DNA of 62,233 bases from Aplysia californica (lineage: Eukaryota): contig NW_004797560.1 of NCBI RefSeq assembly GCF_000002075.1, positions 490,535 through 552,767 of the forward strand, written 5' to 3'. Positions 17,101-59,599 of the stretch are shown one piece after another. How positions within the stretch are numbered: the stretch's first letter is position 1; each line of letters starts with the position of its first letter. The notes below the pieces were generated by a model that saw nothing but the letters and a program-made list of their open reading frames with translations, did not search any database and was not told the origin of the DNA. Both the position numbers and the translations under genes were made by a program.

Positions 17101-20100
17101 ATCCCCAATACAACAAATCAATATTGTCAACACCTTTCACTCCTTCCCTTCATCCCCAATACAACAAATCAATATTGTCAATACCTTTCACTCCTTCCCT
17201 TCATCCCCAATACAACAAATCAATATTGTCAATACCTTTCACTCCTTCCCTTCATCCCCAATACAACAAAACATTACTACTGACAAAGCCTCCCCCCCCC
17301 CCCTCAAGCACTGACACACACACAGAACAGTGGACTGACAGACTCACCCCATAGCTTTTGTTGCCCATCTCCTGCCGAACGTGGTGGATGAGATGTCCGT
17401 TGACATACAGCATGTCAGTGGCCAGCCTCGAGTCCATCTGCATCACGTGGTATGGGTAGTTGGCCACGTCTTGCATTTGCTGGAATACCCAGGGAGAAAA
17501 GGATAAAGGATTTATAAAAATACCAACTAAACCTATAGCATATGGATTATTTCGCATATATATAGTAAAACATTCTCTAATGACTTCAAAGGAACCGGCT
17601 CTCTTCTGCCCATTAGGCAATTCTTATCAGGTTGATTTGTTTTGTTTTTTTTATTTTGGGCTGAACGCATTTTAAGATATGAAAAAACACATTTCTAAGA
17701 GAATTTTACTGAAAATCGTTGATCACAAACATAAAAATTGTAAATTTACAGTTTTCAAGGATACTTAAGCTTTGAAAGTCACAAAACTTTGACGACCATT
17801 TTCTCGTTAGATTTACTTCTGGCACCGGATGACCCCCACCTCCTTCAATCACAAACATCTCAACTTCTTCTTTTTTTTTGACATCAAAAGCAAGGCCAAT
17901 AGACTTTACAAGCTTTAATTTGGTAGAAATAACTTCATTATATACCCAAAAATTGATGAGCGCCTGACTCCATCATGCTGCGACACAAACAAGCTGTAAT
18001 AGGCTAATACACAAGCAGTTATAATATATATCTCAAGCTTATACCTGGAGCACGGCTTGAACATCAGGGCCCGGTGCCACTGCCATGACATTTCTGCCGG
18101 CCATGTTGAAAACATCCTTCAGGTGCAGAGCCTCGCAGTTTCCAAAGTTGACCTTTGACACGGCGTACTCGGGGAATGCTTCAGCCACCGCCTGTGCCCC
18201 TGCCTCATTGGTTCGCTTGCCAACACCAACAAAAATCTCTTTGCCTTGGGATAAAAAAAAGATAACCAGTTGAACATATTGTTATGATATTGTAGTTATG
18301 ATAATGTAGTCATGAATTTGCAAAATCAAATTGAAACTACAAAATCTGAATCAACATCAATCTGTAAGTAATAACATTAATCCCCCCCCCCCCCTCCTTC
18401 CATGTCAATTATCTGGGCTGGCAACCGTAGTCGCAGCCCCCTCCTCCCTCCCCAAGGCCACAGTAGTCATGCCCCCAACCATACATAAATCTGACCTAGC
18501 TAGCAATGGAATAGAGTAAAAGCATGAATGAATATATACTAAACAGTCAAGTAAACGTGAAAAAGTTATCATAAAACCTACAAACAATCAAATAATGGAC
18601 GACACTGGCTTGTAGGTAATTCTTTACTTTCATCATTTAACACCACTATAACAGAAAATCAAAAATTTTTAATAATTACGCCATAAACATTTGCCAAAAG
18701 AAAAGGAAACTCACTGAAAACTATAATCCCATTGACTAACTAAATTTGATATGGATGATCTTTTAATTAATTTTAAGTCTTGTAAAAGAACGCCAATTTA
18801 GAAACTTTCTGACATTTGTTGTTGTTGTTGTTGTTTTCGATCCAGCAACAGCTGGGCTCTCGCCCTTCTGTCCAATGCCATGTAGAGATAAGTGCAGGTT
18901 TGCTGCAGTTGCTGTAATGTTCCATAGAGTGTGTTGTCAATGTTAGGTCACGGAGGGAGAAGGGTACTACCTAGCTCTGATGTCATTTAGGGCTGTGCAG
19001 TGGAACAGGTGATGCTCCACTGTCTCATATGCATAGTCACACAAGGGACACATTGGGGGAAGTTCCGGGTTTATTCTGTTCAGGTGGAAGTTGACCTGTT
19101 CTGACATTTAATATTATATGATCTGTTGGTGACATCCACATTAATCATCAATGTTTCTGTCAAAACAGGTAGATATATATACAACTCACCAGTGAACAGA
19201 ACATCTCCACCATCTAGGGTTGCCTTCGCATTTCCAATTTCAACAACATTCATACGCAAATCTCCTTTCAACACTTTCCTGATTTCACCTACCTGAAAAA
19301 CAAAAAAAAAGTCAACATCAGCGACTTAAAAAAAATACACAGAAATACTGAAAAAAATTATGCTGCGTAAAATTAAAACTATAATTAATTAATTCACTTT
19401 ACAGGGGTCACCAGTTCTGTATTAAAATCACAGTTTAATTATAGCAACCACTAACTTTTATTAACAGTTTTAGTCTTAGCCCAGGAAATTTAGAATCGTC
19501 TTGTTCTGATCCATTTCCAGCAGGAGAGTCAAGAGTAAAGAAAAATGTGTAACGACGCTGTGGAATCAGGTCTGTCAATTTTTAGGCACGACATGGTGTT
19601 ATTGGTGTCGCTTTTTAAAGCTTGTTACATTAGCCTTGCTTTTGATATACAAAATACCCATTTATCTTGAATGCAAATCCGAGATATTTGCAATTGAAGG
19701 AGGTCAGGGTTGTCTGGTTTCAGAGGTAAAATTAGTGAGAAAATGGCAGCCAAAGTTTGAAAACTTCCAGAGCTGAGAATCCTTGGAAACTGAAAGTTCA
19801 CATTGTGTGTGCTTTTTTAAATCAATGTTTTTCAGTAGAATACACATACACAATTTAATTGTGTTTTTAAATGTACATAAAAGGGGTTGAGCCTACAAAA
19901 CAAAACAAAATAAATCCATATGGCCCAAAAAATGCCAATTTCTTTGATTTCATTATTTTGGCGAGCGCCTGATTTCACCACGCTGCCTCACAAATAGATT
20001 GCACACAGTGTAACGCTGCAAAACAGCGTCAGTGAAGGGTGGGGTTTCAACTTAAAATATTAAGTTAGTTAATTAAATTAGCTTAGATCAGGGCTCCCCT

Positions 20101-22933
20101 TTAAGCACAAATGTGCGTATTACGCATTAAACCTGCAGATTACACGTTTCAAGTTTTGGTGGTGCGTGAGCTTTACTGTTTATAATTTCATTTCGGAGGT
20201 TTGTATATATGCTTTAAAATGTAGGTGGTGTGCGTCTGGCAGGCATCATTTTGGCCCTTCTCTATCCTGAAGCAGAGTCATTGATTTGACAACGCACTCA
20301 CTCACATGCACGACAGTCATCTTCTGTGTCAGAAAAAGTCGACTAGTCGACTTACTTATTTATCAGCTGCGCGCATTTTCCGGCAACACCGGCCGGCTTC
20401 AGCATAAAAAGCTCAGCCTACATTCTGGTGGCTCACATTTGCCAGTGTCGTGCCGTGAGTTTACCCCTACTGTGAGATTACACCCATCCTTCTTTAACAC
20501 ACTAGTAGTAAACATGAATTGTCTGCCACCGAAAGTGTGGAAAGACTGAAATGTGAACCCTGGGATGGCTCTGAAGAACAATGAATCAGTTTATTTTCCA
20601 CCAAATCTGCCACTCATCCCTGCTTTAAATCTCAAGCATCCCGATTTATCCGATTTGGATCGTGTGTACCCCGATATTTTTTTGGGGGGGGGGGGTTTTA
20701 TCCGCCTGTTGCACCCGATTTTTCTAAAATCTTACTCTGTCTTCTTTTCTGTCGTGGGAAGCACTTCCTTTTAAATTAAACCTTTTGTCAGCAGAAACTC
20801 GGAGCACTATTTTCCTAAAAGTCTATGTCGAATTTTGTACGTTGACTCACCAAAAGTTGAGTTGGATCTTTGCTCAACGTATTATTTCAAAGAGTAACTA
20901 TAATGGAAGTAGTATTGATTCGGCATTCCGACTTTTAAGACATTCTCAAGATCTACTAAATGCCTAAACATGCTTTGTCCGAGTTCTGGTTAGTCGTCAG
21001 TAAAACTTCCAATCGTGCGCTTGCACACGTAACAGGACTTCGGCACGTGAGTTCCACAGGCGTGTGTCGGGGATCGTCCGTTGACGTGGTCAATTTAAGT
21101 TCATGCGCACCGGTTGAAGCGTCTTTCAGGACTTATCCGGGGGGAAGAGGGGGCATGTAAAACACTTGGACTAGGAGAGCTTGACGTGATATTTCAGGAT
21201 TTTTTAAAAACTGATAAAACACACATGCACGCTCAGACACACACACACACTGCGTGTGCACAGACACTCATACACCACACACACGCGCACACAAAGGGAA
21301 TACACGTGGATTTAATAAAATAATGGATACTCCTGGAAATTTTTTCAGTTAACTTGGCAGTGACCTTTTAAGTGATTTGTCGTTGATCTCGATTTTTTTC
21401 ACCAGACTTTTAGATTTCATAGAGTGGCAGGTCTATTTTTCTTGGTGTATTAAACCCCTTTTGGTTTGTCAACTTATATTTATTGTATTTTTGAGGCCCA
21501 ACTGCTCAACCACCACCACTCCCCCCCCCTCCCAATAGATACACAACTCTAATTCTAGTCAATATTACTTATTTATTTCTTAAGTTTTAAATAAAAATCG
21601 TAAGCATTCAATTATAGTCATGGTCACTGAGTCACTCTGTGTGTGTCTGTAAGCTGTGTGAATGTGCATGTATAATGTGAGTTTTACAAGCAAAAAATCT
21701 TACCATAAAATTATGAATTTTACCCTTTAAGTTTCTAAAACAAGAGTGTAAAATACCCCTTAACTTTTTAAGATAGTAAACCAAAGCGGAGTGATTATTC
21801 TCATCCGGGGTGAGGATAAACTGGATATTGTATTCTCACCCGGGGTGAGAATAAAATTGATACTATTCTCACCCGGGGTGAGAATAAAATTGATACTATT
21901 CTCACCCCGGGTGAGAATAAATTGAGATCTAGATCTAGACTCTAGATCTAGATCTAGATTCTACTAGATCTACTCTCACCCCGGGTGAGAATAAACGACG
22001 ACCGTCTACTCTCACCCGTTTTTTTGTTGTTTTGAGCATCATAGGACCCCTGTCACTGAGCGCTCCAGGTGACAAAACTCGCCTCCCTCTCTCACTCCGC
22101 TGAGCGCAGGAGGCAGCGAAAATCGCCAACGGGCGGGCCAGCTCTCGAGAGCGGGAGGCGACTATTGTCGATTTGGGGGAAAACTTATCTTTTGAGCATA
22201 TAGCGTCACTTTTTGAAGCTATTTATTGGTTCTGTTATGGAGAATTTTACTCTTGAATAGTTTTTAAACAACCAATCAAAATTAAGAAATAACGACCGAC
22301 GACAGCCAAACGAAAGGAAGAAGGAACCTCTAAAAGTTGGCCTGAAAAGGGGAGCCCTGCTAGATTCTAGATCTCTAGATTTTTCTAGATTCTAGCTAGA
22401 ATCTAGATCTAGATCTAGATCTAGAATCTAGATATCTAGTAGGGCTATTTTCACTTTGTGACAGTGTGAGTGACAGTCATTGACTCATTTTGTCAAATTT
22501 TGATTTTTGATTCCTTTCACTTTCAGCACCTCTAGATTCTAGACCTAGATCTAGACCACTACATGAACATTTACAGTAAGTACCAGGTACAATAATGAAC
22601 TATGTGAAGGTGTAGATCTAGATCTAGAAATCTAGTAATCTTTAGACTTACTTCTCCTTGTCTTGAACTGTGTCCAGGCCGGGCTATCAACGCCGTGTTT
22701 CCTATGACCACTGCGGTGTCATCCACGAAACAGCAGTCGGGGTAGCTTTCATCTTCGACAAGTTCAATGATGTTGATATCACAATTTTTCAAAACTTCCC
22801 TGATCGTCTCATACTCTTGTCTCGCTTTCTCTACATCAACACCGTTTGGATAATTATCCGACCCAACGCTCCTGTTTTTCAGAGAGTTGGGCACACGGCA
22901 AATAATAGCGAAATTGTAGTGAAACGCCGACAT
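10153..22933 (-). CDS. DDAH: Dimethylarginine dimethylaminohydrolase (DDAH)-family gene, 5 coding exons per isoform, 285 or 300 aa depending on terminal exon
   Basis: Exons 22652-22933 (duplicate 24862-25143), 19190-19292, 18045-18244, 17348-17479, then 12746-12886 or 10153-10338. All introns GT-AG with compatible phases 0,1,0,0. Motifs YPDCCFVDDTAVV, RPGHSSRQGE, LDGGDVLFTGKEIFVG, RTN, LHLK. Confidence 0.92.
11160..11527 (-). mobile_element. Full-length tRNA-derived SINE with L2/CR1-like tail and (TTA)n end
   Basis: A box ggtggccttgtggttag, B box gggttcgaatccc, tail gtaaagcgcatagag...gcgctatacaaatgc(tta)n; partial relatives at about 1058-1156, 30020-30305, 33265-33560, 53530-53690, 55243-55320. 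Confidence 0.85.
11797..11975 (-). repeat. Representative of a high-copy ~170-bp interspersed repeat (SINE or LINE-3'-tail-like); at least 15 copies in the window
   Basis: Consensus gtgggtggttggcgggtgctctggtgtggtttgc...cggcacttatatgaccttattgtgttgcaagtgccgtaaaac...actaaaactaaa with a terminal stem-loop. Copies near 630, 749, 1190, 1420, 10361, 10590, 10826, 11797, 14180, 15337, 16243, 26000, 54448, 55345, 57095, 58219, 60917. Confidence 0.85.
12100..12745. repeat. Degenerate tandem repeat containing copies of the DDAH exon 5a donor site
   Basis: Recurrent gtgac(t/c)tacttc (gaagta[a/g]gtcac on the - strand) and gcctcagtcgacctcac. Confidence 0.75.
12746..12886 (-). CDS. DDAH: DDAH alternative last coding exon 5a (MLDQFIDPDVKRIEVDMKQLTFAGRGISSLPLLCLKLKFYKNIIYG*)
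   Basis: ctcag acceptor, phase 0; aligns by eye to the DDAH C-terminus and to exon 5b; gtaagt donor 2 nt after the stop. The acceptor pyrimidine tract is weaker than that of 5b. Confidence 0.7.
   Translation of the reverse strand: MLDQFIDPDVKRIEVDMKQLTFAGRGISSLPLLCLKLKFYKNIIYG
16514..17270. repeat. 51-bp homogeneous minisatellite, about 15 copies, in DDAH intron 4
   Basis: Unit gtcaacacctttcactccttcccttcatccccaatacaacaaatcaatact. Confidence 0.97.
17348..17479 (-). CDS. DDAH: DDAH coding exon 4
   Basis: ttccag acceptor, QMQDVANYPYHVMQMDSRLATDMLYVNGHLIHHVRQEMGNKSYG, gtgagt donor. Confidence 0.88.
18045..18244 (-). CDS. DDAH: DDAH coding exon 3
   Basis: (G)KEIFVGVGKRTNEAGAQAVAEAFPEYAVSKVNFGNCEALHLKDVFNMAGRNVMAVAPGPDVQAVLQ; aag acceptor, gtataa donor. 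Confidence 0.92.
18816..19080 (-). mobile_element. 3' fragment of a LINE (ORF2 CCHC knuckle plus (CAA)n tail) in DDAH intron 2
   Basis: Minus-strand translation PMCPLCDYAYETVEHHLFHCTALNDIR; ends in acaacaacaacaac. Confidence 0.75.
19190..19292 (-). CDS. DDAH: DDAH coding exon 2
   Basis: ttttcag acceptor, VGEIRKVLKGDLRMNVVEIGNAKATLDGGDVLFT(G), gtgagt donor. Confidence 0.92.
20089..22359. mobile_element. Non-autonomous hAT-like element in DDAH intron 1
   Basis: TIRs cagggctcccctt (20089) and aaggggagccctg (ending 22359; duplicate right end at 24589); flanks gcttagat / ctagattc are only an imperfect TSD; internal palindromic attctcacccggggtgagaat repeats at about 21800-21995. Confidence 0.6.
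22652..22933 (-). CDS. DDAH: DDAH coding exon 1 (copy A)
   Basis: MSAFHYNFAIICRVPNSL...YPDCCFVDDTAVVIGNTALIARPGHSSRQGE followed by a gtaagt donor. Confidence 0.9.
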
Positions 22934-24861
22934 GTTTACTTGCTTTGGGTTCTTCAATCTGCACTTCCGCGTTCGCAGGAGAGTGACTCGTTTTCGCACG
23001 GGAAACGCTCTATTGAAATAAAAATACTGGATTGGACAGGATTTATTTCGAGGATATGGGATTGGCTTCCGATAAGCCTACGTAAAGAGTAAAGAGGGAG
23101 AAGTTAATAGAGCGAGTGGGATTATTGGGATAGTCAGTCATGCGGGTGAACTCTAGTGAACAGTTGAGTGAATAATGAACAGTCATCAAACTGTATAGTA
23201 AACTTGTACCTGGAGAATCTTTGCTTGTTGTACTACACCCTATAATAGCCTAGTCTTCTATTAGTGAGCGCATGTGTGCGTCAAAACTGGAAAATCCGAT
23301 GACAATACCACAGACGGCCAGAGATCTGCTGTTTAGGCGGATAGGTCGCGCGAATGACGAATGGGCAAGGAGTTGCGAATGGGTTGATTAGAAGATGAAA
23401 CGTAATAAATTCCGGATATAGCAGTGAGGCAATGACGCGGATGTCGAAAGAAAGGCGGATACTATGCGATTAGCTAGGCCTAATGGACTAGCAAGCGAAA
23501 AGACTTGAGGCGAGGTCGAGCTTTTATAAAAATGGGATGTAGCATCGTCGAATACAAAATCGTTTAAAATTGCAACTAGCCTACATGTATCTCCCTTGAA
23601 CTTTGAAGATAATACTCTAATAAGGTTGTTTTGGGGCTATTAGAGTTTGTGTGTGTGTGTGCGTGTGTGTGTTTGTGTGTGTGTGTGTGTGTNNNNNNNN
23701 NNNNNNNNNNNNNNNNNNNNNNNNNNNNNNNNNNNNNNNNNNNNNNNNNNNNNNNNNNNNNNNNNNNNNNNNNNNNNNNNNNNNNNNNNNNNCTCTAATT
23801 CTAGTCAATATTACTTATTTATTTCTTAAGTTTTAAATAAAAATCGTAAGCATTCAATTATAGTCATGGTCACTGAGTCACTCTGTGTGTGTCTGTAAGC
23901 TGTGTGAATGTGCACGTATAATGTGAGTTTTACAAGCAAAAAATCTTACCATAAAATTGAATTACCCTTTAAGTTTCTAAAACAAGAGTGTAAAATACCC
24001 CTTAACTTTTTAAGATAGTAAACCAAAGCGGAGTGATTATTCTCATCCGGGGTGAGGATAAACTGGATATTGTATTCTCACCCGGGGTGAGGATAATATT
24101 GTATTCTCACCCGGGGTGAGAATAAAATTGATACTATTCTCACCCCAGGTGAGAATAAATTGAGATCTAGATCTAGACTCTAGATCTAGATCTAGATTCT
24201 ACTAGATCTACTCTCACCCCGGGTGAGAATAAACGACGACCGTCTACTCTCACCCGTTTTTTTGTTGTTTTGAGCATCATAGGACCCCTGTCACTGAGCG
24301 CTCCAGGTGACAAAACTCGCCTCCCTCTCTCACTCCGCTGAGCGCGGGAGGCAGCGAAAATCGCCAACGGGCGGGCCAGCTCTCGAGAGCGGGAGGCGAC
24401 CATTGTCGATTTGGGGGAAAACTTATCTTTTGAGCATATAGCGTCACTTTTTGAAGCTATTTATTGGTTCTGTTATGGAAAATTTTACTCTTGAATGGTT
24501 TTTAAACAACCAATCAAAATAACGACCGACGACAGCCAAACGAAAGGATGAAGGAACCTCTAAAAGTTGGCCTGAAAAGGGGAGCCCTGCTAGATTCTAG
24601 ATCTCTAGATTTTTCTAGATTCTAGCTAGAATCTAGATCTAGATCTAGATCTAGAATCTAGATATCTAGTAGGGCTATTTTCACTTTGTGACAGTGACAG
24701 TCATTGACTCATTTTGTCAAATTTTGATTTTTGATTCCTTTCACTTTCAGCACCTCTAGATTCTAGACCTAGACCACTACATGAACATTTACAGTAAGTA
24801 CCAGGTACAATAATGAACTATGTGAAGGTGTAGATCTAGTATACTTAATCTTTAGACTTAC

Positions 24862-25143
24862 TTCTCCTTGTCTTGAACTGTGTCCAGGCCGGGCTATCAA
24901 CGCCGTGTTTCCTATGACCACTGCGGTGTCATCCACGAAACAGCAGTCGGGGTAGCTTTCATCTTCGACAAGTTCAATGATGTTGATATCACAATTTTTC
25001 AAAACTTCCCTGATCGTCTCATACTCTTGTCTCGCTTTCTCTACATCAACACCGTTTGGATAATTATCCGACCCAACGCTCCTGTTTTTCAGAGAGTTGG
25101 GCACACGGCAAATAATAGCGAAATTGTAGTGAAACGCCGACAT
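24862..25143 (-). CDS. DDAH: DDAH coding exon 1 (copy B, probably the allelic copy)
   Basis: Same translation and donor as copy A; lies inside the 2.2-kb duplication across the N gap at 23693-23792. Confidence 0.8.
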
Positions 25144-25904
25144 GTTTACTTGCTTTGCTTCTTCAATCTGCACTTCCGCGTTCGCAGGAGAGTGACTCGT
25201 TTTCGCACGGGAAATGCTCTATTGAAATAAAAATACTGGATTGGACAGGATTTATTTCGAGGATATGGGATTGGCTTCCGATAAGCCTACGTAAAGAGTA
25301 AAGAGGGAGAAGTTAATAGTTAAAGCGAGTGGGATTATTGGGATAGTCAGTCATGAGGGTGAACACTAGATCTAGTGAACAGTTGAGTGAATAATGAACA
25401 GTCATCAAACTGTATAGTAAACTTGTACCTGGAGAATCTTTGCTTGTTGTAGGCCTACTACACCCTATAATAGCCTAGTCTTCTATTAGTCATAATTAGT
25501 GAGCGCATGTGTGCGTCAAAACTGGAAAATCCGATGACAATACCACAGACGGCCAGAGATCTGCTGTTTATGCGGATAGGTCGCGCGAATGACGAATGGG
25601 CAAGGAGTTTTACAGTCTAAGCTCCTTGCGAATGGGTCGATTAGAAGATGAAACGTAATAAATTCCGGATATAGCAGTGAGGCAATGACGCGAGTGTCGA
25701 AAGAAAGGCGGATACTATGCGATTAGCTAGTGGACTAGCAAGCGAAAAGACTTGAGGCGAGGTCGAGCTTTTATAAAAATGGGACGTAGCATCGTCGAAT
25801 ACAAAATCGTGTAAAATTGCAACTACATGTATCTCCCTTGAACTTTGAAGATAATACTCTAATAAGGTTGTTTTGGGGCTATTAGAGTTTGTGTGTGTGT
25901 GTGC

Positions 25905-37100: not shown

Positions 37101-38604
37101 TCTCTCGCGTAGTCCATGACAGCAAGACAAAAATGAGAAGGCAAACAGTTCGAAAGGAAGAGGCCCATTCGTTACTTGTTTGTCTAAAACTACAGTGAAT
37201 TCTATCATCACGGTTATTCGGGATAAGATCAGTAGTTTCATTTCGGAAGAAATAACAGACATGTTTGCTGTGGAAATTGACACAACACAAGACATAACAA
37301 CTCAAGACCAGTGCTCCATTGTCGTTCGATACGTGGATGAAACTGGCAACATCCAAGAAAGACTGGTGAGCATTGTGAAGTGCAAAGAAATTACCGACAA
37401 AGCCTTTGTGCAGATTGTTTAGGACGTTATGCAAGGGTTGAATCTTGACCTCAAACAATGTGTTGGGAAGGCAACTGATAGTGCAGCAAACATGCAGGGA
37501 CACTATAGAGGTTTCAGTACTCTGCTTTCAAACAAAGCTCCAAAGCAGATCCGTGTTTGGTGCCACGCTCATGTACTGAATCTTGTCGTTTCGGAGGCCA
37601 CAAGTGCTGTAGTGAACAGTGCATTGCTACTTACATTGATGAACGACATTGCAGTGTTCTTCCGGAAGTGTTATCAGCAGATGAACTTCTGAAGGCAGGC
37701 ACTCGACTACTATGAAGCGTTTGGGAACCATTGGTGAGACCAGATGGTGCTCAGAAGATGTTGCCTTCAGGAAGGCGTTTGGTTCTTTCAACAATCTATC
37801 CGAAGCTCTGTTAGTTGAAGTGATCACCAGCCTCAACACTGTACTTGTTGCTGACAACATCCAAGCAGTCATGGCGGACTTCGAAGCTTCTCAAAATGCA
37901 GCAGAAAAGTTTGTTCAATCTGTTCAATGGGTAAATGATGCACTGGAGGAGAGAGGGTCAGACTCATTCGTGGAAGAGTCGCTTCCCTTGAAACGGCGAA
38001 AACGACGCAGGCGAATGGATGATGAATTCTGAACAGACGAAGCTACATCAACAGTTGACCCAATGAACAGAATTGCAAAGCCTTGGAAAACAAGGGAAAT
38101 CGCTGAAGCAGTCAGTTGCAGACCACAATGAGGTGAAAAACGGCGGCATTGACTGTGAATCAGAACTGAACACAAGAAATGTTTCAACAAGTTCTACTGT
38201 TACATGTATCTCATGCAAAGCTTGCCCTCTCTGCTGTTACAAGGTGCTACTCAAGTTGAACCCCTTCACCGATGCTTACAAAGGCATTGAGGTTGCTTTC
38301 AAGCTACTACTAATCCTGCCTGTGTCGCAGGTTGCATGCAAACGGTCGCTTTCTGTCCTGAAGAGAATCAAAACCCCTCTCCGAAGCACAATGACACTAG
38401 AACATCTTGAGGCAACTATACTTATGTCAGTGGAAAAGGAGATCTTGACCAAACTGGACAATGAAGACACCATTGATGCTGTGGCCGCCAAAAGCAAAGA
38501 ACTTCGCAGACATCTACTCTCTTATGCTCCGGGCTGAGTTCTTGTGCTAATGTTGTTTTGATTTGGTTGTACCACATATATGTTGTATATTACAAAGTTG
38601 CTTA

Positions 38605-42442: not shown

Positions 42443-44761
42443 CTAAAACTATTTGTACCCTCACAAACCAAACAGAATGAAAATGGTGGAATAGCTTTCG
42501 CAAACTTAAATAAAAAAGAAGTAATTCAAACCTTAGCCTAAGTAATAAATCACACACTCTTATAGACTCACAAAACAAAGACAAATCTCATTATAAACTT
42601 TAAATAAAATAAAATGTAAAATGGTTATTAAAAAAGCTATGAAACAAAAAAGAAAATCGAAGTGGTGAACATGGTACATGATGTATTGACATAATTTGAA
42701 ATGAGGCTGGACAAAAGAAGAACAAGAAAACACGTTGGCCCATTTCTTTGCCTTCTAATTTGATTCAATGTCCTTGATGCCCTAGATAGTACGGTAATCA
42801 ATTATATTGATCAGTATTCTCAGCCAAGAAGTACACAGTGTGGACTGCACATGTTTACAACAGGTACCGTACATGATAGAAGAGGACAGATTGCCAAGAG
42901 GTAGGGCCTACTGGGTACCCACCGAAGGCAGCTGTATGATATTTTTTTTTTTAACCCAAGAAACTTTAGGCCCCCCTCCTTTTAAAAACCTTTTCACAAT
43001 TACCCCTTCACCACCCCCCTCCTCTTTTGTTCTTGAAACTTCTTGTCTTTTGGGCTTGAAGAGCTTTTTAAAAAAAAATGTAGTAGTTATCTTTCACAAG
43101 ACCATTGTGAAAGGGGTGTTTGAAGGAAAGAAGTGGGGCAGGAGAGCCAGAGGAAGGAAAAGAATAACATAGATGGACAACATATGAAGGACTGGCCTGG
43201 ATATGGCAGGATGTGCAACGGCAGCTTGCGACCGTGAAAGATGGAGGGTCATAACGCGTCAACCTCTGACTCTGAGTCAGAGATGACACCTTCAGTCATC
43301 CAGGTGCCTCTGTATATTTCACACCCTAACTGACACAATCAGATCATTTAGGAGTGAGGGGGGCTTCGAACCAGCCTGTCAGTGTAAGGCCAACCAAGGC
43401 TTTGGGGGAAACAACATTAAAATGTCTTAACAACAGTAACAGAAAGACAGAGGTACTTTTCTTTTGATAAAGGTTCTCTCCACACAGCAATCAAACTGGG
43501 TCTTCTGCGAGTGGTGGTGAAGTGTGTAACCCTGCAACACCACAGACACCGGTGGCTTGGGTTCAATATCTGCAGCTGCAAAAAGCTCTTCAAGAACGAA
43601 ACCTGTCACCACATTGACAGCTCAGCGTTAAGACTCTGTCATAACTCACTTTTCAAAACAGCATTATATGGCAGAGAGTAACACTAAGCAGTGAACATCA
43701 TACATAATATATTATTCTATATATATATATTAATAGTAGACCCGACCTGTTCCATTTTTTCAATGCCGTTCTTTTGCTGGTAGAATGGATTCATCAAAGT
43801 GGCCATAGTAAACCGGCTTTCTGCCGGTTTGACGGCTACTTTCATGACTTAATGTCACTCGTCTGAATCAAAATGGCGAGGGCTACAAACGAAACAGATT
43901 GTTGTTTCTGCTCTGGTGATTGAGGAAAAAGAAAAGAGGGGGTCATCAACATTATGAGGTTTCATCCTATCAACAGAAGGAGAGCTATATGTATACATGG
44001 AGAATACCACCATCTCATGCCCCAACTGCCCAATCACCGGAGAATTTTCAGCAATATCTCAAAATGACACATCAGAAGCTCTTCTTTAACTGTGAGCACC
44101 CGATCTATCTTAATGAGAAGTCCACAAATTTCGGAGCCTCACAGCAAAAATTAGTATTTCTTTGCCCATCTTCATCATTTGCAAGGGGAAAGAACTATCA
44201 TTGTTATTGTAAAAAATGGACAAAGTACTGTCCCTTCCAACTTTTCTTTCTGTCGTTGAGGCAGCGGGGCGGATTGCACGATAGGCGAAAAGAGGGTGTT
44301 AAAATGCCGCGCCGGGCTGGCCACTGTTACTCTATGGCCGTCCACGCACGTCGCTGGTGGCGCCACATAGCAGTTCAGCCGGGTTGATTCTTCTCCTCGT
44401 CACGGCAAAAGAACTGCGTCAAAAAAACCAAAACAACTGGAATGGGACGGGTCTACTATGGTTTCAGCCGGAGCGGACAGACGGAGGTAGCCACGTCATT
44501 ATGAGCGAAAGACAATCTCAGACATTACAGTCCACTTGATGATCTAAGTGCGATGTTTCTGTTCTACAATTGGATCATCTGAGTTGTTCCATTCAACGGT
44601 CTACTACAATCCTCAATACGTCAATACACAATGTCCTGCACATTTTTTTCCCTCCGTATAGGAGGGACTGTCACTGTCATTGGCCACACAATGCTTTGGT
44701 TCAAAAGGACCATACGTATTTTGATGGTTGTACATGTAGTTGTAGTTTGTTACTGTCAGTG

Positions 44762-45763
44762 TTAGTTGAAGTAAACGGTCTTGATGTCATTTAGAAAGGC
44801 GATGAACATATCCGGCTCATCCTTCCTCCAAATCCTCCAGCAAATGTTATCCAGGTGAGACTGGAACGTGCTAAGGTTATAACCTCGTTTTTTCTTCAAG
44901 ATGTTCGTGCTGGCATCCAACCAAGACCTCTCAACGGGCTGGGCGTGAACTCCTGTTGCTGGATCCACATGAAGCTGGTGGTGGTTGACAGTTCGATGCT
45001 GAAATCCTAAAGAGCTGAGAACACCGTAGGCTGGCCATTCGTTGCAATGAATAAAAGACCCTGGCTCGCACTCACGCTGAATGATTGGAATCAGCGTCTC
45101 CGAGTCCCTGTTAATCACCCAAAAATAACGACAATCGTTTCCTTTCTTGAGTCCAAAAACCCACAGATCGTCCATCTGTCGACCATAACTCTGACTGTTT
45201 TCCACAGAAGTATCGTCGTCAGCATTACTAGACGGTTGATCTCTGGCCAGCTGCTTTCCACGGCCGTTTCCTCTGCGGCCGGCAAATCCAGACTCGTCGA
45301 CCAGGATTGGTTCCGTTTCCGTGCCTACCATTTTTCCTCGGGATGAAACAATGCTGGAGCATACCTGTCGGCACATTTTGAACCGATCTACAACAACCGT
45401 GCGACTTCTGCCGGTGAGAGCGACAACTTGATCCATTGACATGTCAAGGATGAACATGAAAACCAGCTCAAGAATGGCGCTGAGCGGGAGCCTTGCATGA
45501 ACGTTGCCGCCCCGAGCCTTATGATGGAAGAATGGGTTCCCTCGACGCAGAGATCGTGAAGTTTGGCAACCTTTTTTGGGGCATCTCAGTACGGCTCTGA
45601 ATTCACCCCCCTTATCCCTCTTCCTGGTCTGTCTCATCGCTGTGCCACACTTGTGACAAGGATTAGCGGTGTCCGGAGCTCCTAGGAGGCCCTGACAAAT
45701 CAGATAGTTTGCTGCTGCTTCTTCTGTTGGAATAACAGTGTCGTAGAATTCTCTCAGGTACAT
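44762..45763 (-). CDS. ISXO2-like (IS1595/Merlin family) transposase-domain protein, 333 aa, intact, possibly domesticated
   Basis: N-terminal zinc ribbon CHKC...CPKKGC; motifs VDES.FAG, WVFG, RDSETLIPII, IHCNEWPAY, TVNH, VDPATGVHAQPVERSW, QSHLD, all characteristic of Merlin/ISXO2 transposases. Confidence 0.9.
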   Translation of the reverse strand: MYLREFYDTVIPTEEAAANYLICQGLLGAPDTANPCHKCGTAMRQTRKRDKGGEFRAVLRCPKKGCQTSRSLRRGNPFFHHKARGGNVHARLPLSAILELVFMFILDMSMDQVVALTGRSRTVVVDRFKMCRQVCSSIVSSRGKMVGTETEPILVDESGFAGRRGNGRGKQLARDQPSSNADDDTSVENSQSYGRQMDDLWVFGLKKGNDCRYFWVINRDSETLIPIIQRECEPGSFIHCNEWPAYGVLSSLGFQHRTVNHHQLHVDPATGVHAQPVERSWLDASTNILKKKRGYNLSTFQSHLDNICWRIWRKDEPDMFIAFLNDIKTVYFN

Positions 45764-46519
45764 ATTGTGCTCGGTTTCAGCTGATGCTATAATGTAAGAA
45801 ATTACTTGAATGATCTCAGTCTCTCTGTGAAGTTCAAAGTTAATTGGGACTGAAAAAACAAAATGAAAAAGTTACCGTCTTAGTTTAGTTTTTTATACTT
45901 TAGCCAATCACACGCGCACAAGCTGTCTCTGAAGTCTGAAGTAAGTAGCCTTTAGATCTGGCTAATCACTAGATATCTAATCATGGACCCATGGGAACCG
46001 TGGATAAAAGTTTAGTGTAGTGTAAGTAAAAAGTAAAAGTGAACTTTTACGCCACTGCCTTTGCAAGTTCATGCTTCCCAAGCCTGGACGTCGACCCATC
46101 TCAGGTCATTATATTGCTTTCCTGACCGCCGCCTTCTTGTTTTGTTTACAATAGGACCACTCACTGTTTACTGTTTACTAGACTATTTTTGGCATAGCAC
46201 AGGACAAGTTGACAGGTAGACCGTAACAAGTGCCGCAGCCGGGCCACTTGACGGTCTACCGCCATAATGCGATTTAGGCCTACGGATGACATGAACAACC
46301 CACGGTTTGCTTGACGATCTACCGATATAAACAGTTGTAAACCATAGAGTAAAACAAAAACATCAAGGCAGTTAGTCTACTTGACTTACAACAACCAGTT
46401 TTAGCCTATACATAATGTTTAACCTAATTTTTTTTTTTTAAAGAAGTAAATTTGGCAATCTCGACCGTTTGTTTTGTTTTTGACTAATCGAACTGCTAGT
46501 ACTGCCTCAAACGTCCAAG
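45764..46519. promoter_or_regulatory. Probable bidirectional promoter region between the ISXO2-like gene and TBRG1
   Basis: Divergent ATGs 757 bp apart; relatively CpG-rich; YY1-like CAAGATGGCTGC overlapping the TBRG1 ATG; - strand donors at 46389 (gtaagt) and 46164 (gtgagt) and acceptor at 45850 (ttttttcag). Confidence 0.5.
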
Positions 46520-49201
46520 ATGGCTGCTCCCAGTTCGTCGACTAATCAGACAAGTTCAGCGCCAGTATGTAGATCTAGATCTAGATCTAGTCAGAATAAT
46601 TTGATGTTTCTGTCTTCTTTTTCTTGAATACGTTTCAGTCCAGATAGATCTAGATCTGTATCAAGGATACTCCTGTTTTAACTCCAACGATTGCTGTTCG
46701 ACAGTAGGTCTACTACTACTATCCTTAAATCTAGAGTTAGAGTCTAGTCTAGGCCTAACTAATCCTGCAATCCTAGATCTGACAATGGGTGATCTTGTTT
46801 GTAGTTCCGTTCGTTAAAGTCCACGATCCATTTGTTTACATCCAGAGAAGAAATCCAGAAGTCTTGATGACCAAATACTATTTGAATTAGGCTACACAAA
46901 GAGTGGGGATGCAACCTAACTGCAAAACATCAAATTTAGGCTAATTATTAGGATAAAATTCAGGGGGGCATGCGGCATGCTCCCCTGAACCCACCCCCCC
47001 ACCTCAGTATTTTTATTAGGTCAGGGGAGCAAGCCCCCCTGAAACCCCCCTACTCTTGACTTTAACGAACGAAACTACAAAATCGCCCTACAATGGTTTT
47101 AATTGTCAATTTCTTTGCACCTACGGACTCATCTCTGTGCTGTCACGTGTGGGAAAGAAAGAAAAGAAAATACAAGCGTCGACAGTCGTCCGATTTTTAG
47201 ATTGTCTGGCTCGCCATCGTAACCGGTCAATGAACCTGCGCGCATTCGCATCATAAATAAATACGGCATCGTGTGAGCAAAGACCGTTTTTGGTGGGAGT
47301 AACTGCGTTGCGAAGTATAGGATTACGGAAAGGAAGAGGCTAGCCGTACTTAATGACGGCTAGACTGGCAGTCTAGCCGTACTTAAGTACTTATTCTTAA
47401 TATGATGGCTAGACTGACCATTTACAAAAAATAGGCCTACTGAATTGTAAATATATATACATTTTTAGTGTGCAGTACCTAAAGTATTTGTATTTGAGAC
47501 AAAACCAGGTTCCTTAATGACAGTGCATGTATTTTAAACCTCCTGTTTTCTAATGTAAATAGGGCCTAAGATAAGTACGGCTAGACTGGCAGTCTAGCCG
47601 TACTTAAGTACGGCTAGACTTCTTGTACTTAAGTACGGGTAGACAGCCAGGCTAGCCGTACTTAAGGACGTCAGTCTAGCCGTACTTAATATTGATGGCT
47701 GAATTGTAAATGAAAATTTTAGTTTGCAATGCCTAAAGTATTTGTATTTCAGACAAAACAAAAAGGTGCCTTACTGACTTGCATGTATTTGAACCTGAAT
47801 AATTACTAGATCTAGATCTAGATCTAGATTAGATCTAAGGAGACCTGTGTACTTAACAGGATTGAGTCGATTGGGCCAAACCTAGATCTAGATCTAGATC
47901 TAGATCTAAGTACGGCTAGACTGGCAGTCTAGCCGTACTTAAGTACGGCTAGCCACTTCGTTACGGAAAAGGGGAGGGGATTATTGATTTTTTTTTGGCT
48001 GCTCTTATTGGCCCACAGAGTAAAAATTAGCGAGAAAGGGGCAACTAAAGTTTTGATTTGGTAAGTGTTTTAAGGCGCTCGCAACTGTATAAAGTCATAT
48101 AAGTGCGGGACACATGAAAATTAGACATTTTCAGTTTGGAAAGTAGGAACTAATTATGAATTTTGCTAGAGTGGCAGCTAAAGCCGACTGTACTCTTATT
48201 GATTTTGGACCCCCAAGGGAATTTTAACATGTGCAACTCCCACACGGAACCTCTAAGATTTTTCACCCTTATCTGAGAAGGCTAGGTGTTCTAGATCTTT
48301 CTAAGATCAAGGATATGGATGAAAGACAGCATTAAGAAGGAGCGAAAGGAGTTGCAGTAGAAAGGCTTCAGAAAGAGTCAGGAGCCCAGAGGAGTGGGCT
48401 AAAGGGGGTGGGGGCAGAAAGTAAAGGTGAAAGTAAACAACAGAACATGGTTAGAAAGCAGGAAAGGTGAAAGGTGGAAATTTTAGAGAAGAAAATTTTC
48501 CGTCGCTTTCAGGTTTCGAACCTGGGACCTATTGAATGAGAGGTGAACACTGTAACCTCTAGACCAGTGGTTTTCAAACTTTTTTCGCCCACCGCCCCCT
48601 TTTTCACCCAGCCGAGCCCCAGCGCCCCCTACTCCACCCCAATCATCAATGTGACATAACGACATGCATAATATAATAGCAATCACAAATAAAGAGAGAG
48701 CTCAAACAGCAGCGTAGAAAGTAACATGCCTAAATTCTAATGATTTGGTTCTGAATATTAGTTGGGTCACAAATCACCATCATTACAGAGTTTTAAATTA
48801 AGCGTGTACGAGAGATAATAAATCACATTTTTCTCCAAACTTATGAAAGGGCATTGAGAGCAAAATGCTGTCATTTTATGCTTATAGTTGTAATCGGTAC
48901 TAAACGACCAGTGTTATTAACATAAATAAAAATAAAACATGTATTATCACATTTACAGAAGCAAAACGCCAAAAAATAAATAAATAAATAAAAACGCCCG
49001 TGATCATTCGTTTGAAAACAGATTGACATTATCTTTATGAAACGTTTTCTCCCATCAACGTGCTGCAATAAAGTTGCCTGAGATGTGTATCAAATATCTC
49101 CATTGTAGAAAATAAAAATATTATTAAGTTGTTCAAATGTGAGAAACCACACGAAAGAAAAAGTATGCATGGATCTTAGTCTGTAATTATCACCATCATT
49201 G

Positions 49202-49251
<50 letters not shown>

Positions 49252-52200
49252 TTCATTATCATCGTCATCATCATCATCATTTTCATCAACAGTGGTAGCA
49301 CGTGCACATAAAAAAACTCTGTTTAACAAGTGAATGTTTTGCTTTTTTTAAAAAGGAAGAAAAAAAAAAAGAAAAGACACATTGAGATATCAAGTAAGGG
49401 TAAACTACGGAGTAGCGTGCGCAAATAAGTTATTGACACTACCCTAATGGGAAGGATGGACCTGCTTAAGACGGAACCAACTTATCAACATCAGGTTTCA
49501 GATTGGTCAGTAGCAGACGCAAATCGCTACGCTTCGTCAGCAACCTTGCCACTGTACTGAATCCCCTTTCCACTAGATAGGAGGCGGGAAAAGAGATGAA
49601 CAACAACTTGATCTTTTCCCACTTCTCTTGCACAACAGTTTTCAACCAGAATGACTGGTACGGCTTTTTGAACAATGGTTAGATTTCAAAGTCACATTTC
49701 ATCGTCAGAAGCTCTTCTTCAATTGCTACTTGCAAGTTATCTTCTGTTTCAGTGTTCGATGGGTCCAATATCCAGTATGGAATTTCCAGTTTAAAAATAT
49801 CAGGAGGCTAAACCTTGTCTTCATATCAGCGTGCAAATCTCTGAGGTGGTTGCTATATATATTTGTAGTTCCTCGTCAGAAATGCGCCCTTCTTTCAGTG
49901 TCTTCGTCAAGCTAGGACACTGAGAAATTTTCTTCTGCCAATATTTCGGCGGATCATTTCCAATTTCCACAAGAATGACAAAAGCCTTGATCAGGTTGGT
50001 ATCATCCCCCTGCAGCTGAAAGTTGAACTGGTTGAACTTTGTGAAAAGATCTGTGAGGAGCGCAATGTTGTTCTTGTGTTCTTTCTGTTTATTGCAGAGA
50101 TCACTGTCTCTTTCTTGAAAACAAAACCTCCAGCACAGAGTCAAAGAGGCAGAACAATAATTGTGTTCAACAGTTTCCTTTCGAGAGCCACCAGACTTCA
50201 ATGTGCAAAAGTAAGCTTTGAAAGTACTCGTCATTTTCTGTCTCGAGTTCAAAGCGTGGACTTTGATCTTGTTCACACACTTGATGACAATGGCCAGTGT
50301 GTCCTGCAGACTATCATTCAGGTTTTTTACAACCAAATTATGTCTGTGAATGACACAGTAAACAGTAAATACTCCATGGACTGATTTCATCTAGAAGTTC
50401 ACAAATCCACGTTTCCGACCTGCCATCGACGGTGCCCCATCTGTTGCACAGGCAACTGTACTGGTCAGAGGGATCTGTTTCTCGTAGAAAAATTCTTGGA
50501 CCACTTTGAAAATGGACTCGCCTTTGGTATCTGTTTCCGACATTTTCGCAAATAACAATTCTTGCATTATTCCCTCACCCTCTATGAACTGATATCCAGT
50601 TAAAGGCTGAGCTCACGCCCTTTCAGCATTTTGCACAGTGATTCCTCAACATTAGCTGACGTCTCATCTAAACGTCTTTGAAAGGTATTTGCACTTAGTG
50701 GGAAAACTTTCAACACAGGCTCCGGGGCACGTTGCAGGACTGTGCTGACCACCTCTCTTATAGCAGGCAATATGAGGTCCTCACCGATAGCATGGTGTTT
50801 CCCTGCCTTTGTAATTAGCTGAGATAAATTATATGTTGCTCGTAAGCCTTCATCAGCTTGATCGACGTTGGCTGCAAACATCGGTTTCACTGATTTTCAT
50901 TTCTGAAAATTGATCTTTAGAGTTTTGAAGTATGCTACATCTTTGTCAGATTTTTCGTGATGAATCTTCTTATATGGGATTTGCGGGCTGGGAAAGAAAG
51001 TTCTTAGTTATAAGTGTAAACTATGCCTAAGCTATCAATTTTGTTTTTGTTTTTGTTCTTTTATGTGGCTTTTTTCCCCTCATCATTTTTTATGTTGCAT
51101 GTCATGAAAATTTCACACCGCCCCCTTAGCGCCCACAATCGCCTAGTTTCGCCACAGCGCCCCCCAAACTCTCGCCACCGCCCCCCTGGGGGCTGTAGCG
51201 CCCACTTTGAAAACCACTGCTCTAGACCATAAGAGCCCCCTCAGCAGGTTTGACTATGATATATCGATATAATATTCTTTTTCCACAGAAGATTTCTGCA
51301 CCTTCTGGGTCAAACACAGACACTGCCACTGCCTCAGGCACAACTGCACCGTCCAGCATGGAAACCAAACCATCGCCAAAACTCCTGGACCAGCTCATGC
51401 AGAAAAAATATAGCACAATTCCTCACGGGTGAGAGAACCTGACATCACAGCAGAGTCGTTCCTCTTTGTCTCTGAGAAATTTACTGAGTTCTAGAGTTTT
51501 CTGATTATTTGTGTGGCATTATTGAGGTGAAATCAGGCGCTTGGAAAAATAATGAAATCAAAGAGAACAACATTTTCTGTCTGCTGGGCAGTTTTTATTG
51601 ATTTTATTCCAAATATTTTTTTGGGCATCATAATTGAAGCCTTTACTATTTAAATCTAATGCATGCAATTGTGCAGCTGCCAATCAGGACCTTGAAATGT
51701 GTTTTATGTTTTTGAGGGTCTGATTATGGAAGTCTTTTTTCATGTTTGAAAATTTGCTTTGTCTGTTGTCTCGTATTTCTTCTTTACGGACTTGCTGATA
51801 TTGAAGAAAAATATGAATTCTGATCAATTCGTGACTGGATCTGTGAATAATAGTGGGAACGAAGCCCGTTTGTTACTTGAGTTTTGTCTGTACTGTATAG
51901 GTAAAGGTCTTTTCGGAGGATTTCTGATATAATACTTATATTCTTGCAGATCTGCCACGACTAGTTTTAAGTGAATGTAGACATGCTTGTTTTAACTGTT
52001 TTGAGGGGGAATTACTCGGTCATTGCCTACCATATTTATCTGCTGTGTTGGTAAAGTCTGTTTTTTGGGTTTAAAAATTTTGTAGCTAAGTAATCAACAT
52101 ATTGTTATTCTGAGGGAACTCCTTGATTTGAAGTTACTTTAGACTTGTGAGCCCATTTGAAAACATGGAAGTCACATTCAGTAATTTTCTCAGTCGTTAG

Positions 52201-58200: not shown

Positions 58201-59599
58201 CCTCTTCAGTAAACTTTTCTGTGGGTGGTTGGCGGGTGCTCTGGTGTGGTTTGCTCCTTCTTTCCTATCAGACATCTATCCTCTTGTCTCCCCTTCTTCT
58301 TTTTTATGTTTGTTACTCTCTTGTAACACCTCTAATCTTCTGGCGCTCATATGACCTTATGCAGTTGCGAGTGCCGTAAAACCTCTACTAAAAAAAACCC
58401 AACTTTTCTGTCCATTTATTTACTCTTTCCTTTCCTTCCATTAACCCTGTGGCTCTTCTTGTTTTGACAGGGGAGAGATTCTGCCTACCGAAGGTCGAGG
58501 GTTGGATTTCTTCGGCCTGTCTCACCCGGTCATCCAGAACCTGGTCCAGTCGTGCCCCGGTGCCCGCAAGTGTTCCCGCTACAAGTGGGTCAAGTTTGAG
58601 ATCAACAAGGCGGAGACCAACGACAACGTGGCCGTGGGGGTCACTGACCCTTGTGTCAGCTACGACGCCTTGAAGATGCACATGATTGCCAGTGAGTGAT
58701 GTGATTACTTGTGAGTGGGGTATGATTGTTAGTGGATGGTATGATTGCTAGTGAGTGATGTGATTGCTTGTGAGTGGATAGAATTGCGAGTGGGTGGTGC
58801 TATTGCTAGTGGGAGATATGATTGCTAGTGAGTGGTAAGATTGTTTGTTTGAGTTATGATTGCTAGTCATCAAGTGAACGATTGTAAGAAGGTGAAGAAT
58901 AATTGCAAGTACCTGACATTATTTTCAGTCAATGAATGATTGTCAGATAGTGAATGATTTCCAGTAAATTACATGATTCTCCATTATAGTTTTCTAAATT
59001 ATTTTGAGAGGGGCAAAAAAAATAAATAAAGATGAACATTTTGAGAAATACAGTCAAACTCGGATGTAACAGAACAGATGGGACCAGCAGTTTTTCCCAG
59101 TTATAACCGTTATCAAGAGAAAGTACCAGTACCATATATATTTATATATATTATATATATATATATATATATATTCGATTACCGCAGATCCTTTTCCAGT
59201 GGGCTGTTTTGCTGACACAGACGGAATGGTTCAGTGACCCTAACATTATGGGTGGTATGTGTTTAGGCCAGTGATCAAACCAACAGGTGAAATGTCTTGG
59301 TTGATACAAATTCTAGTAATTAATCTTGACTGTTCGAAAGCATGTTCATGCATTGCAAGATCACTATTGAATCCGAGTCTGCGCAAATTGAACCCTGTTA
59401 TATCCAAGATCCTGTAATAACAGAAGCTGTTACTGTTATAAATGGACTGGACTGTATTGAAATTCTTTTCTTGTTTTCTCTCTCCCTCTCAACAGTTGGT
59501 CAAAGCCGACCCGGCCAGAACCTGGCGGCCCATGTGGAGCAGTCGACAAATCTACGCTCTTTGCTTACCAAGGGCAGCGGTCAGGGATCTAGCTCATGA
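46520..59599 (+). CDS. TBRG1: Transforming growth factor beta regulator 1 (FYRN/FYRC domains), 11 exons, 459 aa
   Basis: Exons 46520-46564, 51289-51428, 52644-52776, 53742-53812, 55073-55182, 55823-55999, 56777-56910, 57399-57545, 57865-57962, 58471-58691, 59496-59599 sum to 1380 nt in frame, all GT-AG. Coiled coil NGAVCDEVLRTEEKLAKAKEERRFLLRKLLQ, FYRN IYPVGYCITRVYAS...YTCKI, FYRC DFFGLSHPVIQNLVQSCPGARKC. Exons 1-2 rest on splice sites and phase only. Confidence 0.92.
47332..47960. mobile_element. Palindrome-rich MITE with 9-bp TSD (Mutator- or Merlin-type) in TBRG1 intron 1
   Basis: TIRs ggaagaggctagccgtacttaa / ttaagtacggctagccacttcg; TSD ttacggaaa at 47323-47331 and 47961-47969. Confidence 0.8.
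48565..51219 (-). mobile_element. hAT transposon of Buster/Charlie type (ZBED5/SCAND3-like transposase, decayed) in TBRG1 intron 1
   Basis: Perfect 14-bp TIRs cagtggttttcaaa / tttgaaaaccactg; 8-bp TSD ctctagac (48557-48564, 51220-51227) with central TA; motifs KHHAIGEDLILPA, ATDGAPSMAG, CVIHRHNL, FPASYLVERGFS. Confidence 0.95.
52644..52776 (+). CDS. TBRG1: TBRG1 exon 3
   Basis: ttctag acceptor, ...QEQYANKLKKIRRAIKDTIF, gtacgt donor. Confidence 0.85.
53742..53812 (+). CDS. TBRG1: TBRG1 exon 4
   Basis: VNGAVCDEVLRTEEKLAKAKEER, canonical splice sites. Confidence 0.88.
56777..56910 (+). CDS. TBRG1: TBRG1 exon 7 (start of FYRN)
   Basis: ...LDSLGRPVFPMALGDVTLHSIGE, gtacgt donor. Confidence 0.88.
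57399..57545 (+). CDS. TBRG1: TBRG1 exon 8 (FYRN)
   Basis: IVPDRLSFHCPDSIYPVGYCITRVYASLHKLDTKCLYTCKISDNNDGPL. Confidence 0.9.
58471..58691 (+). CDS. TBRG1: TBRG1 exon 10 (FYRC)
   Basis: GLDFFGLSHPVIQNLVQSCPGARKCSRYKWVKFE. Confidence 0.9.
58682..58866 (+). repeat. Short-period tandem repeat copied from the TBRG1 exon 10 donor
   Basis: Recurrent atgattgctagtgagtg; the first unit is the real ATGATTGCCA|gtgagt junction. Confidence 0.8.
59051..59454. mobile_element. pogo/Tigger-like MITE in TBRG1 intron 10
   Basis: ta|cagtcaaactc ... ggactggactg|ta (TA TSD, degenerate TIRs); similar ends at about 14830 and 56260. Confidence 0.5.

Follow-up and report, generated by a model that had tools for sequence, protein, structure and literature searches.

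Two Merlin transposase-derived genes of Aplysia californica that lack the second catalytic aspartate have evolved under purifying selection and are probably domesticated

Does an open transposase frame with altered catalytic motifs mark a gene that serves its host, or a transposon copy whose decay has not yet reached the reading frame? This question is raised by a frame of 333 codons in Aplysia californica, here called gene A, in a window (the whole stretch of DNA that was analyzed) of 62,233 nucleotides, corresponding to positions 490,535 to 552,767 of contig NW_004797560.1 in assembly GCF_000002075.1. All positions below are those of the window. The initial annotation had proposed that gene A is a host-co-opted DNA-binding gene derived from a Merlin/ISXO2 transposase. 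Domesticated transposases are well known from the hAT, piggyBac, Harbinger, Mutator and Tc1/mariner superfamilies; if the reading is true for gene A and its paralogue, gene B, the pair would add Merlin to the animal list.

Gene A runs on the minus strand from an ATG at 45763 to a stop at 44762 without interruption, and the plus strand of this interval was ruled out as the coding strand by the presence of stops. The protein matches the Pfam domain DDE_Tnp_IS1595 (PF12762; E 1.7e-10, 41.6 bits versus a cut-off of 27) and exhibits 50 to 55% identity over its full length to many DDE-intact Merlin transposases, whose motifs read DE[AS]RFAGRRKYNRGR, IHSDEW and Q.IERSW. Scored against 40 full-length relatives, gene A has Asn at position 241 (codon AAC, 45043-45041) where 37 of the relatives have Asp and one each has Glu, Val and Ser; its triad is D156, N241 and E278, and the DDE set is not intact. 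This substitution had been noted at the outset, as had two further changes that are also seen in the alignment: RRGNGRGK where relatives have RRKYNRGR, and VVDR where they have xxDW. As a rule, DDE enzymes lose catalysis when the Asp that serves as second metal ligand is replaced by Asn or Gln. The zinc ribbon, also described as intact, retains all four cysteines, which were scored against 30 aligned proteins; Atlas feature matches to PF12760 clusters reach 0.93-0.94, and no Pfam zinc-ribbon match was obtained in gene A at an E value of 0.1 or below. A statement that gene A is the sole uninterrupted transposase of the window holds for the frame itself and, as to rivals, for the part that was scanned: in a Pfam scan of 10 of the 43 window open reading frames of at least 120 amino acids, the only other transposase match was one hAT dimerization fragment.

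The model of the full gene A protein contains an RNase H/DDE core (best Z 10.4, rmsd 3.4, 129 aligned residues), and a separate model of residues 1-145 predicts a helix-turn-helix (HTH) that resembles DesR, sigma region 4, Myb and Tc3A with Z scores of 5.3-7.3, values that lie below the tool's caution line of 8 and may reflect just a common arrangement. Foldseek returned no match for either model at an E value of 0.001 or below, and a PDB sequence search found nothing relevant. The effect of the W127R change is not judgeable from the model, because its alignment supplies Trp. Features of the locus are collected in Table 1.

Table 1. Features of gene A and its surroundings, in window coordinates
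Feature	Position	Strand	Basis
Eroded downstream (right) TIR remnant facing gene A	44528..44567	+	nhmmer E 7.7e-5
Gene A, Merlin/ISXO2 transposase-derived ORF	44762..45763	-	open frame, Pfam match, fold
C-terminal helices, residues 291-333	44765..44893	-	helices in model; omega 0.08, most constrained segment
Catalytic Glu E278, kept	44930..44932	-	alignment, 40 relatives
Second catalytic Asp changed to Asn (N241); Gln in gene B	45041..45043	-	alignment
K165G in RKYNRGR motif, common to gene B	45269..45271	-	K in 37/40 relatives, G in 0/40
First catalytic Asp D156, kept	45296..45298	-	alignment, 40 relatives
Predicted helix-turn-helix, residues 94-141	45341..45484	-	helices 94-105, 110-117 and 121-141 in model
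W127R, third HTH helix, common to gene B	45383..45385	-	W in 39/40 relatives, R in 0/40
Zinc ribbon, C36/C39/C61/C66	45566..45658	-	invariant in 30/30 aligned proteins
CCAAT-box island upstream of A and B	45904..45913	+	10-nt identical run, A/B alignment
Weak inward-facing upstream (left) TIR remnant, doubtful	46207..46232	-	E 0.35; unreported by second profile
Outward-facing, well-kept TIR	46238..46274	+	nhmmer E 1.2e-5
Likely first coding exon, TBRG1-like gene	46520..46564	+	ATG and GT donor

Gene A had been expected to be single copy. A DNA search of the animal's own genome (927 Mb, animal-type), in which copy counts are lower bounds, found at least 10 matches on five contigs, and one of these is an intact and complete paralogue, gene B (G000:C1384:58661-59870), with 79% nucleotide identity to gene A. 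The frame of gene B is open over 402 codons; the loop that leads from the second Asp position to the Glu contains an inserted repeat of a 21-nt unit, and Gln (CAG) stands in place of the second Asp. A second, partial B copy lies at C1384:60715, after an N gap, and is likely an allele or an assembly duplicate, because its 98% identity extends through the flanks; the two point differences between the B copies are both nonsynonymous. The other matches of the gene A family, in three places, are fragments of 66-80% identity with stops and frameshifts, of which the C36 fragment keeps the canonical IHSDEWP and HTQSIERSW while the C518 fragment has a stop at the family's W127 position. The intact frame is present at low copy number, namely two loci and the partial 98% duplicate of B. 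With the best other match to gene A at 79%, this search found neither near-identical dispersed copies nor the many near-identical TIR-flanked copies of a mobile element. A protein collection contains a version of gene B (P0002), and the exact gene A sequence is absent from it.

Unrelated Merlin families within this genome are multi-copy and DDE-intact, with copies 98.8-99.5% alike. At least three distant families with an intact DDE triad have copies 97-99.5% alike (G000:C1701, C1053 and C562, which are L018, L023 and L019; C430 and C183, which are L025 and L026; C82 and C573, which are L016 and L017); L026 is flanked by two microsatellites, a long one of AG and, on the opposite side, one of TC. 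These distant families have probably been active recently. This host thus still has young Merlins, the gene A/B family not being among them, and the active families exhibit only about 30-35% identity to the gene A protein.

How far A and B have departed from transposase constraints, and whether they did so together, can be judged from the conserved columns of the alignment. At 91 columns, at least 85% of the 40 relatives agree; gene A deviates in 15 of these columns and gene B in 10. Three changes, N85G, W127R and K165G, are common to both genes and absent from all 40 relatives, and three further residues (S240, D241 and K285) are altered in both genes to different residues. In a quick tree, A and B form one clade (SH-aLRT 100) with a stem of 0.69 changes per column and tips of 0.15 and 0.23. 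From these sequences we infer that the common ancestor of A and B had probably already drifted from transposase constraints. Loss of the second Asp need not be shared, as the AAC and CAG codons may have arisen independently. The departures of A at conserved columns and the nonsynonymous differences between the B copies may indicate relaxed constraint.

A pairwise codon maximum-likelihood comparison of A and B gave an omega of 0.21 (dS 0.74, dN 0.155; 2ΔL 90 versus omega = 1), so the prediction of a dN/dS below 1 was borne out against a catalytically altered paralogue, with the proviso that the value is pairwise and not separable by branch, and that the element's active life could supply part of it. 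Counting methods (NG86) gave 0.19-0.29 and the bootstrap 0.17-0.33. The differences number 52, 44 and 122 at codon positions 1, 2 and 3, and all three coding indels (3, 147 and 12 nt) keep the frame. Constraint varies along the protein: omega was 0.15 for residues 1-145 (2ΔL 52), 0.21 for residues 201-290 and 0.08 for residues 291-333, while residues 146-200, with the first Asp and the linker, were the least constrained (0.54, indistinguishable from 1). Where the flanks can be aligned, they are 54-55% identical and contain many indels, compared with 78% identity for the coding sequence, and flank divergence roughly equals synonymous-site divergence. A and B are Merlin copies without the second catalytic Asp that have evolved under purifying selection.

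As selection during the active life of an element also lowers omega, an independent clock is needed. Simulated neutral decay before indels left the frame open in 3.4% of cases at 0.1 substitutions per site and in 0.8% at 0.15; with indels these values fell to 0.07% and to 0 of 3000. Such a clock is provided by the terminal inverted repeats (TIRs). Merlin elements are described as having TIRs that start with GG and 8-bp target site duplications (TSDs) (PMC8101967). No intact pair of GG-starting TIRs with a TSD brackets the gene A frame, as had been stated, and no 8-9-bp TSD is recognizable by reading the sequence at gene A; the impression of a locus free of such ends has to be amended, as eroded cognate TIR remnants are present (Table 1). 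The right remnant is 90% identical over 40 nt to L161 by blastn and is followed by a subterminal repeat at 44596-44610. The second TIR profile was built from 30 MITE ends.

A 17-mer upstream of both A and B occurs 39 times exactly in the genome (0 for a reversed control) and, when one mismatch is allowed, 246 times (207 with one; control 1). We dropped its interpretation as a plain promoter motif when it proved to be MITE TIR, namely the inner part of a 26-nt TIR that is whole at L170, L178, L180 and L183: GGTGCCAGTCCACTTGACGGTCTACC. The terminal 17-mer picked out 37 ends; among 30 of them, 10 have an opposite end 230-751 bp away, and the 8-bp TSDs of these ten elements have no mismatch in two, one mismatch in one and two mismatches in one. 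Metagenome contigs that encode intact protein relatives have TIRs of matching design, GGTGC...TCTACC, and the decayed C36 copy carries the 26-nt TIR downstream; on these grounds we regard the MITE family as the cognate of the gene A/B Merlin. At TIR positions 18-26 of the family, 74 of 270 positions differ (indel shifts included), the elements are 65-77% alike and the ends are about 25% decayed. Judged by this divergence, the cognate family is old and long decayed. It is difficult to account for two open frames in so old a family unless selection acted once transposition had ceased. Selection on the TIR core across the genome is unsupported, with 37 exact terminal 17-mers versus 39 exact inner ones; since the core is not preferentially preserved genome-wide, any regulatory network would consist of few sites.

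The upstream region of gene A is of interest for the placement of one such core. Gene A lies head-to-head with a TBRG1-like gene, with 757 bp between the two ATGs and the FYRC exon of the latter at 58484-58597; a genome search with the intergenic stretch matched only itself. A TIR core of 20 nt (46243-46262) is identical upstream of gene B and is located about 450-500 bp upstream of both genes. An identical run of 20 nt was reached by 13 of 20000 column shuffles, a figure that applies to a core noticed after the fact. The CCAAT-box island, a second run that is identical upstream of A and B, may have a promoter role. A 5' UTR intron with an acceptor-like site near 45850 found no support: the contig that spans 45328-46233 in run X13 shows no splicing, and gene B has no AG there. 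Neither AATAAA nor ATTAAA occurs on the sense strand in 43001-44762. Exon 1 of the TBRG1-like gene (46520-46703) has two candidate donors, 46565 and 46704, of which an X13 contig uses the second.

Four sequencing runs (X7, X13, X21 and X23) were compared for coverage of the locus. X13, with 93 million letters and taken to be RNA by guess, has contigs over 44728-45062, 45105-45321 and 45328-46233 with depths of 2.5-9.5 and zero coverage at 46312-46455; a 1550-nt contig of this run leaves the genome at the GT donor at 46704, consistent with spliced TBRG1. Low-depth X13 contigs are also found over non-coding 43137-44552, and a DNA background is possible. Two listed X13 variants in the frame are synonymous, one further variant on the same contig is unlisted, and all listed indels are outside the gene A frame. 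In X21 and X23, which are raw poly(A) data, depth over the frame is zero, and the control failed, its bin in TBRG1 exon 1 also being near zero (0.26 and 0). X7, probably DNA, has almost no contig on the frame although it is listed as matching at 0.74, so that filter holes occur. Among the listed runs, none of which is recorded as RNA, eleven with small contig totals (57-143 million letters) contain 57-77% of the words, and of these eleven X13 alone is taken as evidence. The coverage by X13 is suggestive of gene A transcription.

Protein searches found no orthologue in other species: in three length classes no match exceeded 58% identity apart from P0002, the entry of gene B itself, and among the best 150 representatives none exceeded 63%. 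A search of longer proteins revealed no fused form, with 1 distant match among 2532 candidates, which is weak evidence. The A/B pair may be lineage-restricted or simply unsampled. Several full-length open frames of the gene A clade with degenerate catalytic motifs were observed (P0030, P0040, P0035, P0019, P0042 and P0097); P0030 and P0040 group together (SH-aLRT 99) and have lesions in common, and in P0097 a tandem repeat is inserted in the loop that also carries the gene B insertion. In gene models of Diabrotica virgifera, a motif-degenerate transposase of this Merlin clade is fused to the HMG-box protein DSP1 (P0096, P0249 and P0250; XP_050511378/9), with two similar transposase versions among the fusion models; this is possibly an independent Merlin capture or an annotation artefact.

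Few domestications had been thought to be known from the Merlin superfamily. Putative cases do exist in protists: one study describes Merlin/ISXO2 candidates in Stentor, Symbiodinium, Perkinsela and Bodo (PMC8101967), and Oxytricha ISXO2 genes are called domesticated in another (PMC5312943). For animals none was found in the literature covered, to which most subscription papers do not belong, and the supplement of PMC8101967 may list these proteins. A Drosophila study of Tc1/mariner-derived genes includes synteny and expression among strict criteria and rejects one- or two-copy candidates without them (PMC13548663), and SETMAR (Hsmar1) is reported to retain TIR binding (PMC9062482, PMC3459987).

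The A/B pair shares with Merlin DNA transposons (IS1016/IS1595-related) a DDE_Tnp_IS1595 domain as well as cognate MITEs with GG TIRs and 8-bp TSDs, but unlike them gene A has lost the second Asp, has eroded TIRs and no TSD, and belongs to two old loci only. As in the protist genes, an open frame is preserved without an intact TIR or TSD, in a group where DDE is often unconserved and spread is by duplication. In contrast with those cases, A and B are found in an animal, the dN/dS of the paralogues has been measured, the cognate MITE family has been identified and TIR cores are present in the promoters. SETMAR (Hsmar1) and CSB-PGBD3 (piggyBac/MER85) are likewise reported as domesticated transposases beside scattered TIR relics; these two, however, are fusions that stem from other superfamilies and whose binding has experimental proof, whereas the gene A frame is apparently stand-alone, its binding is predicted and its HTH core Trp is changed.

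We consider it likely that A and B are domesticated host genes. The original proposal of domestication gains from the omega of 0.21, the lack of young copies, the decayed MITE ends and the low neutral survival, and loses its supports of a single copy and absent TIRs. Mobility has been lost, in TIR/TSD or in catalysis, and selection between the paralogues has been purifying. Whether a domesticated pair would bind the TIR core we regard as evenly balanced; DNA binding by gene A is plausible given the predicted HTH fold and the TIR core in both promoters, and is weakened by W127R. For the pair as a whole we lean slightly towards a domesticated Merlin that works as a non-catalytic binder of the TIR core. 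On this model, an old Merlin family, characterized by its 26-nt TIR and its 8-bp TSDs, would have spread in the genome, leaving hundreds of MITE ends. One copy would have gathered N85G, W127R and K165G at otherwise invariant residues and would then have been duplicated together with its upstream flank to give A and B, and as the family became extinct the second Asp would have disappeared from both daughters, giving way to N in A and to Q in B. The zinc ribbon and HTH would still recognize the inner TIR core, the conserved C-terminal helices would dimerize the protein, and the metal site would be dead, such that DNA would be bound and not cut. The protein would bind, or repress, in a sequence-specific manner, in the first place at the TIR core that precedes A and B, with autoregulation of both genes (for gene A via the promoter common to TBRG1), and some MITE ends may perhaps also be bound.

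An unlikely alternative is that the pair is domesticated for another purpose, with the C-terminal helices and RNase H scaffold serving as an adaptor for protein interactions or chromatin, or dampening Merlin transposases as their dominant-negative partner, W127R having abolished or changed DNA binding. The C-terminal helices are indeed the most constrained segment (omega 0.08), W127R is common to A and B, and the TIR core has no genome-wide preference; the zinc ribbon and HTH, however, are also constrained (omega 0.15, 2ΔL 52), and the TIR core is retained in both promoters. Active Merlin families persist in the genome, but at only about 30-35% identity mixed dimers are less likely. It is rather doubtful that A and B are not domesticated at all and are instead dead copies of two old subfamilies, with a low dN/dS from their active life and frames that survived by chance. 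Such copies would suit the TIR remnants that still flank gene A, the several conserved residues that gene A lost on its own, an independent loss of the Asp in A and B, the failure of protein searches to find an orthologue and expression evidence that is no more than suggestive. Yet neither subfamily has close copies, the other fragments of the family are broken and the cognate MITEs are about 25% decayed; synonymous sites and flanks have diverged to about the same extent, the neutral survival of 3.4% per copy at 0.1 substitutions per site would have to apply to two copies, and the changes that A and B have in common at near-invariant residues speak for an ancestor in which function was already impaired. 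It is very improbable that gene A encodes a transposase that is still active, or was so until recently, by means of a non-canonical catalytic center: the frame is intact, D156 and E278 are kept and an RNase H fold is predicted, but the D-to-N or D-to-Q change would normally abolish catalysis, neither young copies nor young MITEs are found, and the TIRs of gene A are eroded.

The preferred reading, of domesticated TIR-core binders, can be extended to one in which A and B are Merlin-born animal transcription regulators that bind the TIR core, control their own expression through its copies in both promoters and recognize some of the hundreds of sites spread by MITEs, with the clade tamed repeatedly in other animals. 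We hold this extension to be unlikely as a whole; its element of recurrent taming points to P0030/P0040, P0035, P0042, P0097 and the beetle HMG-box fusion P0250. The pair gives a test of joint co-option of a transposase and scattered sites, as its three components can be named: the protein domain, the site of 20 nt and the promoter in common with TBRG1.

The window contains several other features. Just downstream of the right TIR remnant of gene A, a 727-bp element (43733-44459) with 28-nt inverted ends, an apparent AT target duplication and frameshifted remnants looks multi-copy in reads; the remnants have no Pfam match and resemble a PIF/Harbinger-ISL2EU transposase. The hAT fragment found by the Pfam scan belongs to a broken element at 38067-38537 (+) with a piece of the dimerization domain. 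Intron 1 of the TBRG1-like gene contains a cluster of short palindromic repeats (47318-47969) with TAAGTACGGCTAGAC-type units and TAGATC runs, and, at about 48566-51223, an element-like stretch with CAGTGGTTTTCAAA ends that we take to be a broken hAT. The same DDAH-like coding exon occurs twice on the minus strand (22571-23077 and 24769-25218), about 2.1 kb apart, as either an exon duplication or an assembly duplicate. An array of 45-nt units at 16432-17354, open in all three forward frames, is probably a minisatellite.
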